A DNA stretch of 64,000 bases. Origin: Octopus vulgaris (taxonomy: Eukaryota). The first letter of the stretch is position 1, and each line of letters begins with the position of its first letter. The stretch lies in the NCBI GenBank assembly GCA_951406725.2, contig OX597815.1, forward strand, positions 90,086,001-90,150,000, given 5' to 3'. The position numbers were made by a program, and so were the translations under genes. The notes beneath the pieces were generated by a model that was given only the letters and a program-made list of their open reading frames with translations, was not told the DNA's origin and did not search any database. Below are positions 60,934 through 61,490 of this stretch, piece after piece.

Positions 60934-61488
60934 GAGTGAGCGAGCAGAGCATGCCATCAAAGTTACACTGGGGTAAAATATACGAAGCCCAGTATACCCA
61001 TCATGACTACCAGTCTGATAAGGGTACACCAGGCACATGCATCACAACCATATGTGCGCGACATGGTGATCTCATATCAAGATAAACAGCACATGACCTT
61101 GCAGGTGGAGCCCAGTTAGAATTTTCTTCAGATCGAGTAACCCATCCCGCTCAAAAGGTCCCTGAATAAGGGTTGTTTAAGGACGTTGAACGAAACACCC
61201 ATGTTTCCAGAGGTGAATTATTCAAACCCCAAAGAATCCTTCTCAACACATGGCTATGATGCTCCCCCACTACTTCTGCTCGTGATCAGAGATGCACATA
61301 TCGTCAGCCACTAAGGGACATGCTCAACTGGTTAAGGTCAAACAATTGACAAGCAAATCTGTGGTATTGAGCAGAATATTTGCTGTAGCCCATCTTTTAT
61401 ACCAAGACAAAACAATGTACATGATAACACTTCCAATCAGTTAAGATCAGAAGCCATGAGAGCCAGTGCCTGGTACTGCATCAGGGCA

Positions 61489-61490
<2 letters not shown>
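60934..61490 (-). mobile_element. Element X, apparently full-length non-coding retroposon in (TAA)n
   Basis: Unique ~557 bp between two (TTA)n tracts, with three other partial copies in the window. Carries a 3' hairpin resembling the Dong 3' UTR. Strand is inferred from the (TAA)n tail polarity. Confidence 0.8.

Follow-up and report, generated by a model that had tools for sequence, protein, structure and literature searches.

Element X and its copies among TAA tracts

The window, a 64,000-nt stretch of the Octopus vulgaris genome (contig OX597815.1), contains a 557-bp non-coding unit with 45% GC at positions 60934..61490, here called element X. Its nucleotides are numbered along the minus strand, with nt 1 on the 61490 side and nt 557 on the 60934 side, since we infer that the minus strand is the RNA. 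TAA-type tracts border the full-length copy on both sides. Read on the minus strand, the tract at 60683..60933 follows the 3' end of X as its target or tail and also forms the 5' flank of a smaller X piece at 60587-60679. The tract at 61495..61572 lies at the 5' end, again on the minus strand, where X stands head-to-head with a plus-strand tRNA-type SINE (~61573-61790). X is a discrete high-copy unit whose repeat nature and boundaries are established, and the coordinates and both tracts agreed with those of a first-pass annotation.

That annotation had also described X as lacking a tRNA B-box and homology to reverse transcriptase, and our searches bear this out. ARAGORN detected no tRNA in X, a scan of the sequence found no B-box, and an Rfam search returned no family, only chance matches (best E 3.2 on X alone), so that a small-RNA origin of the X head was rejected. 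A likeness between the first loop of X and a U2 snRNA loop, and between nt 310-355 and 5S boxes, was unsupported by the analysis. X carries three T4 runs, which by themselves do not rule out Pol III in molluscs (excerpts of PMC4758252). None of ten X-derived peptides had a Pfam family above the cut-off, and nothing significant was found against 120 R4/Dong proteins (best E 0.022). A coding origin was rejected after a phmmer search of 1.84 billion proteins, in which 13 of 15 matches traced back onto X itself; the remaining two, P0129 and P0141, are tandem-repeat proteins that do not trace to X. The ends of X are not complementary, leaving no terminal inverted repeat, and a target duplication is invisible when an insertion lies inside a microsatellite. 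X showed no hammerhead fold (stem II of at most 2 bp) and no match to an HDV-like ribozyme with a custom descriptor that had no positive control, and none of the Rfam ribozymes matched even when E values up to 10 were allowed. By blastn, it had no similarity to the tRNA-type SINEs or the Penelope-like element of the window.

A blastn search of X against the window recovered the three partial copies that had been annotated previously (86-96% identity), the sole other row being a 14-nt chance match. The copy at 11048-11432 on the plus strand comprises nt 176-557 (85.7% over 385 columns, E 5e-126). Its tail is the tract at 11433-11552, and an R4/Dong coding fragment (10689-11051) is joined upstream with no spacer. 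The copy at 38051-38175 on the minus strand comprises nt 1-125 (86.4% over 125 columns). Upstream of it lies the tract at 38181-38207, which is the tail of a lineage B Dong, and downstream it is joined to a 5'-truncated lineage A-type Dong (37138-38049), an assignment made from the Dong copy at 59264-59327, with which it agrees in 85% of nucleotides. The copy at 60587-60679, also on the minus strand, comprises nt 94-186 (95.7% over 93 columns), with a TAA tract upstream and, without spacer, a lineage D R4/Dong 3' fragment downstream (60010..60586, minus strand; tblastn match 60143-60577) that covers the zinc-knuckle/endonuclease region. One of these three pieces is without the 5' part, one without the 3' part and one without both.

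Across the four copies of the window, five of the eight copy ends lie at most 12 nt from a TAA tract, a distance found for 0.85% of window positions. On one and the same X strand, each of the five reads AAT. Two database ORFs, P0125 and P0135, showed matching TAA polarity at either X end. The other three ends adjoin same-strand R4/Dong coding fragments of different lineages. TAA on either side is confined to the full copy, and each partial copy has a tract on one side and a Dong coding fragment on the other. It should be noted that these flank statistics cover the four window copies and the loose-end rows listed below. Each of the four copies runs in the direction of the R4/Dong fragments beside it, as had been observed, although the original wording presumed that the minus strand is the RNA.

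The three X-Dong fusions occur at three different X positions and in the middle of the ORFs of at least three Dong lineages. Such chimeras can be template jumps, which are documented in vivo for the R2 enzyme (PMC3414825), or can arise when neighbouring elements in a common tract are partly deleted or become nested. With either origin, X and Dong use common landing sites, and the fusions need not prove a common enzyme.

R4/Dong elements of the window and the 3' hairpin of X

R4/Dong pieces make up 14.4% of the window (26 tblastn rows at E 1e-3, with the lineage B frame as query) and fall into several mutually dissimilar lineages. At least six lineages lie head-to-tail in common TAA tracts, at 2235-8244, 37138-41521, and 57071-61572. 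We take the clade name R4/Dong provisionally from the domain order, the TAA association and known motifs. The lineage A copy (2235..5479, plus strand) is decayed and near-full-length, with TAA tracts on either side, and carries a 53-bp tandem duplication at 5233-5344 within its zinc-knuckle/endonuclease region. The lineage B copy (5691..8172, plus strand) is 5'-truncated and retains 794 open codons with RT (YMDD), zinc-knuckle and restriction-like-endonuclease motifs, followed by a 100-nt 3' UTR; full-length relatives have an ORF of ~1,200 aa. Lineage B exemplifies the candidate helper class. The genome of O. vulgaris has 51 Dong-R4 families covering 92.7 Mb, of which five families have 1,129 recently active insertions (PMC13282606).

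R4/Dong loci of animal type were also found on six GTDB contigs (L001-L006), some with TAA tracts and SINEs, which probably represent host contamination of MAGs. On one of these (L001:131-330, a bacterial MAG contig with likely animal carry-over), the full-length 5' end of an R4/Dong element consists of a TAA tract and then a short 5' UTR. This UTR recalls tRNA and 5S promoter boxes, for which Rfam found nothing. No R4/Dong loci were found in viral contigs.

The Dong 3' UTRs seen in the window are ~90-130 nt long and mostly unrelated in sequence (p 0.3-0.98 among lineages, except 0.003 for A versus A-type and 0.017 for A versus L002). Those of lineages A and A-type fold into long hairpins, with a GGT loop in lineage A. 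X itself folds into a long 3' hairpin at nt 461-500 (60991..61030, minus strand; local z -3.2), 57-97 nt before the tail, which is a candidate recognition structure for a partner protein. The first-pass annotation had pointed to this region, ~60-95 nt before the tail, and to its resemblance to the lineage A 3' UTR as a sign of tail sharing with the mobilising LINE. The hairpin stood, but the resemblance is mostly private to one copy. At position 61012, the plus-strand base of the family is C and not A for 83%, 87%, and 92% of the depth of three DNA runs, so that the 4-bp stem with a GGT triloop is private to the full-length copy.

Direct comparisons likewise gave the tail-sharing claim no support. 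Two X copies were scored against 11 R4/Dong 3' ends (eight from the window and three from outside) under three scoring schemes, giving 66 tests, and the best p value of 0.010 (lineages A and G) did not survive multiple testing. In the second X copy, the same matches had p values of 0.80 for lineage A and 0.53 for lineage G, and the lineage G match was dropped on this account. For copy 11048 and the lineage A-type UTR, none of 300 shuffles was as good under one scheme; a retest gave p 0.013-0.029, and the young X copy gave p 0.40-0.77. For the hexamer that X has in common with A and B, p was 0.11. Nothing in the comparison of X with the lineage B 3' UTR (p 0.41-0.98) pointed to lineage B, whose protein had been proposed for binding tests, as the partner.

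The 5' region of the lineage A copy (2235-5479) showed no colinear similarity to X, with a sense score of 28 at the shuffle level. An antisense match (score 37, reached by 5 of 500 shuffles) between X and the sequence that codes for the lineage A N-terminus had been picked from 11 windows and two strands, and we regard it as chance. No similarity to X was found in L001-L006. An autonomous Dong with X-like 5' or 3' UTRs was not seen among the 11 3' ends, the lineage A 5' region and L001-L006. The helper family of X is probably not among the lineages of this window.

Abundance and modular build of X

Near-identical X was present in 14 of the 24 listed runs, under five organism labels and from eight studies, with 84-96% of the sampled X words found. 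The number of contigs that fell on X was 114,743, 72,699, and 45,063 in three DNA runs, each from a different organism. Depth summed over X was in the millions, against ~6-50 for the majority of divergent contigs listed; such a sum is not a copy number. X has thousands of copies at least, and plausibly 10^4-10^5. The family is old and long-lived, since diverged copies with peptide identities of 44-86% are also present. Stop-free X translations matched Octopus bimaculoides gene models (four of six matches in one search and three of three in another), and at least five O. bimaculoides 'uncharacterized proteins' contain X. Exact-pattern scans for X found none in metagenome contigs, viral contigs or GTDB genomes.

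Along the interior of X, depth varied 1.6-2.6-fold, and the ratio of head depth to 3' depth was 0.78, 0.90, and 0.72 in the three runs. X copies are mostly full-length, with a mild loss at the inferred 5' end. Loose ends at 61489-61490 were ATT-rich on the plus strand in all four runs (71, 63, 42, and 1 contigs, among the rows listed). Their agreement at 61490 was only ~0.45 in the DNA runs, which fits a variable phase. It should be noted that the contigs carry no information on strand, start or polymerase.

Within X, a head module at nt 1-106 (61385..61490, minus strand) contains a hairpin at nt 38-61 and a TATA-box-like octamer at nt 90-97. It is followed by a central core of 167 nt at nt 107-273 (61218..61384, minus strand). 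Loose ends at 61218 (nt 273) were found on 120, 141, and 76 contigs in the three DNA runs and loose ends behind 61384 (nt 107) on 75, 86, and 67, and both junctions recurred in all three organisms. The Logan ORF P0138 aligned to X at 61219-61383 and nowhere else, and a comparison of frames by eye showed its flanks to agree with the sequences of both junctions. In the RNA run, the central block was 2.75 times deeper than the X 3' region. The recurrent junctions, P0138 and the block depth together indicate a second repeat family, Y, which has the central 167 nt of X but differs from it in both the head and the 3' part. Both Y-type junction motifs were absent from the window.

In further recurrent joints, the start of an X copy was preceded by a head piece whose last base lies at ~nt 126-195. 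The joint near nt 136-139 (~nt 1-139 before nt 1; window 61352-61490) was seen in the O. bimaculoides gene models P0121 and P0124 as well as in a sequencing run, which suggests an amplified head-duplicated X subfamily. Family Y with its common core and the recurrence of head-duplicated copies are new here. At nt 120-125, X has an initiator-like word. We speculate that a start near nt 120 would drop the head from the RNA, and the head would then be usable only from an upstream copy.

Contigs with X and Y pieces and octopus-type junctions also occurred in an RNA run labelled insect metagenome (share 0.20; 19 contigs with depths of 5-38). These may be carry-over, which is the simplest reading, or DNA, and they are evidence neither of transcription nor of horizontal transfer.

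Probable strand and mobilisation of X, and comparable elements

Several features are consistent with the minus strand as the X RNA. The minus strand folded better than shuffles (z -3.5 in one analysis; -3.0 versus -0.6 for the plus strand in another). Depth was lower on the 61490 side in all three DNA runs. The 61490 junction is phase-variable in the window copies and among the loose ends, whereas the 60934 junction is identical in both window copies that carry that end. On the other side, the older copy had no notable fold asymmetry (z -0.6 versus +0.6), truncations in the window are symmetric, with one large partial copy retaining either end, and the tRNA-type SINEs of the window have tails of the opposite polarity. 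Base skew does not decide the strand of X: the sense strand of other octopus SINEs is rich in T (-0.11 and -0.21), compared with -0.16 for the X minus strand.

The tRNA-type SINEs of the window have ATT tails and a polarity opposite to that of X, and point to a second TAA-associated retroposition system alongside Dong and X. Their copies, with ATT-rich flanks and tails, lie at 9346-9560, 17892-18454, 50670-50838, and 61573-61790.

We consider it fairly probable that X is a high-copy non-autonomous retroposon inserted into (TAA)n by an R4/Dong protein through target-primed reverse transcription. An X minus-strand RNA of 557 nt plus a UAA-repeat tail would be bound by a single-ORF R4/Dong LINE protein, whose restriction-like endonuclease would nick a (TAA)n tract and whose reverse transcriptase would copy X at the nicked tract. 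The 3' hairpin may be used for recognition by the partner, and X may be transcribed by Pol II, either from its own head or by read-through in stacked arrays. This model would account for the fixed polarity, the stacking with Dong in common tracts, and both X-Dong and X-X chimeras. It is supported by the insertion context, the one-way polarity, the Dong fusions and the discrete high-copy structure. The first-pass proposal of a SINE- or SIDE-like RNA moved by R4/Dong is supported in its outline, but its argument from tail sharing, its choice of lineage B and the status of X as a SIDE are not.

An alternative that we regard as unlikely reads X on the plus strand, with a small hairpin beside an (ATT)n tail and with the LINE of the ATT-tailed tRNA-type SINEs as helper, so that the adjacency to Dong would be incidental. 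ATT-tailed SINEs with ATT-rich flanks are indeed common in the window, one of them using the 61495-61572 tract of X, and the X plus strand, as also the Dong ORF, is rich in A. In this orientation, joints that lead from 61478-61490 back to 61296-61365 are easily taken for 5'-truncated copies landing on the end of an older copy. However, the plus strand has no folding advantage over shuffles (z -0.6, as above), and in all three DNA runs depth falls, and does not rise, towards 61490. In addition, the phase of the 61490 junction is variable, as is usual for 5' junctions, whereas the 60934 junction is constant in the window copies, the T-rich sense strands of octopus SINEs resemble the X minus strand, and neither strand of X has a tRNA head. 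It is also very unlikely that X is the terminal piece (a long 3' UTR or 5' UTR) of an ordinary autonomous LINE absent from the window, a possibility already raised for the 3' UTR in the first-pass annotation. Three X pieces are joined to Dong coding sequence, and O. vulgaris has Dong-R4 families beyond those compared here (51 in total; PMC13282606). However, these fusions lie at three X positions in at least three lineages and in mid-ORF, and the Dong 3' UTRs here reach only ~90-130 nt. A LINE 3' UTR would be expected to pile up depth towards its 3' end and to continue into coding sequence. X is unlikely to be such a UTR, because its depth stays roughly flat as far as the head and, among the loose ends listed, the sequence that recurs beyond 61489 is of TAA type and not coding.

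A non-autonomous origin of X from a Penelope-like element, as a pseudo-LTR unit with a microsatellite bias, seems highly improbable to us. Such elements account for 6.8% of the O. vulgaris genome (PMC13282606), and Naiads, which are present in Octopus, prefer microsatellites and are without hammerheads (PMC8557442). Partial X tandems exist, and a GIY-YIG ORF lies at window 2-517. However, the joints listed show a head piece and then a full copy, whereas pseudo-LTRs have the 3' piece first, and the bias quoted for Naiads is for (TA)n (PMC8557442). X also shows neither a hammerhead nor similarity to the Penelope-like element of the window. A solo LTR or a non-autonomous DNA transposon preferring TA-rich tracts is more improbable still. 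X is mostly full-length and can be read as TG...CA with the TATA-like octamer at nt 90-97, but it has no terminal inverted repeat, no internal domain among the loose ends listed, and a strict, single polarity relative to the tract. LTR elements, moreover, make up merely 0.77% of the O. vulgaris genome (PMC13282606). Terminal inverted repeats, which the first-pass annotation had named together with LTR structure as grounds for abandoning its proposal, were thus lacking in X.

The proposed mobilisation of X by R4/Dong can be compared with known partnerships, and X would work like EhSINE1 or the R2 SIDEs; it lies outside the tRNA-SINE class and is at most a candidate SIDE. The EhLINEs of Entamoeba histolytica belong to the R4 clade. 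Like X, EhSINE1, the partner of EhLINE1, is a non-coding element of 500-600 bp with a restriction-like-endonuclease LINE as partner, no identified small-RNA precursor and a body unrelated to the LINE (PMC2996970, PMC1635306). However, EhSINE1 has ~70 bp of its 3' end in common with its LINE and inserts without a specific target (PMC2996970, PMC1635306), whereas X is confined to TAA tracts as far as seen and had no common tail in our comparisons. R2Dwi_SIDE of Drosophila willistoni resembles X in its size (~530 bp), its lack of coding capacity, its insertion at the specific target of its helper, its middle part of obscure origin and its variable 5' junctions (PMC3414825). Unlike X, it is 64% and 81% identical to the helper UTRs, has an active HDV-like ribozyme and resides in rDNA (PMC3414825). 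X had no such identity to any Dong seen and no ribozyme in our searches, and is dispersed at very high copy.

Dong LINEs of silkworm (Bombyx), mosquito (DongAg), and snail (DongBg) target (TAA)n as X does (PMC3812793), and X has the polarity of the R4/Dong copies in the window. They are autonomous, with an ORF of ~1,200 aa in full-length relatives, whereas X encodes nothing. Insertion of X into (TAA)n in the polarity of its presumed helper is seen at five of eight ends and among loose ends in four runs, a small sample read with the minus strand as sense. Tail, brevity, great abundance and modular build are shared with the tRNA-derived SINEs of octopus and molluscs (OK, OR1, and OR2; superfamilies CORE, Deu, V, Meta, Ceph, and MESC; PMC4824008, PMC4758252), which also end in a microsatellite; X differs in having no tRNA head or B-box. 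SINEBase defines SINEs as <700 bp with a tRNA, 7SL or 5S head and an internal Pol III promoter (PMC3531059). At 557 bp, non-coding and on 45,063-114,743 contigs per DNA run, X has the size and abundance of a SINE, but ARAGORN, Rfam and the B-box scan gave it no such head. Without a hammerhead fold and with head-then-full joints among those listed, it also falls outside the Penelope and retrozyme elements, as it falls outside solo LTRs and MITEs with its non-complementary ends and single polarity.

In the excerpted text of a 2018 survey, ORF-less bipartite derivatives are reported only in the RTE, Ingi, Vingi, and R2 clades (PMC5786205). No described Dong partner element was found in the literature searched, mainly open-access papers. 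Excerpts of five studies name octopus or mollusc SINEs and no Dong partner (PMC8967140, PMC9115989, PMC4824008, PMC4758252, PMC11481361), two of them also naming Dong LINEs (PMC8967140, PMC9115989). X is probably already catalogued as unclassified, among 1,279 unclassified SINE or 1,102 unknown families of O. vulgaris (PMC13282606). X is real and abundant, with a probable R4/Dong helper and a probable minus-strand RNA. A more specific reading, possible though we hold it only tentatively and would not expect it to hold in full, is that X is the first very-high-copy, microsatellite-targeted Dong parasite in animals. It would have a Pol II-type RNA with no small-RNA head or known ribozyme and with exchangeable modules such as the 167-nt core found also in Y. 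Its structure, and not a common tail, would be what the enzyme recognises, which would open several Dong lineages to it, and in stacked or head-duplicated arrays its transcription would begin in the TATA-bearing head of the copy upstream.

Should a Dong protein be the helper, X would be a natural minimal cargo that defines the cis RNA needs of a site-specific restriction-like-endonuclease retrotransposon, needs that also bear on RNA-templated gene insertion. In that case, X would explain a sizeable share of octopus repeats and compound TAA arrays, together with false gene models such as the O. bimaculoides 'uncharacterized proteins' mentioned above. The general understanding of retrotransposition is unchanged by X.

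Other repeats were noted in the window. A Penelope-like remnant at 2-545 and 1110-1500 has a GIY-YIG frame (Pfam E 0.0003, below the cut-off) and then, centred near 1290, an inverted duplication that is almost perfect over ~190 bp, with TTC/AAG tracts on either side. At 42900-43235, self-blast revealed an AT-rich inverted duplication around TA repeats.
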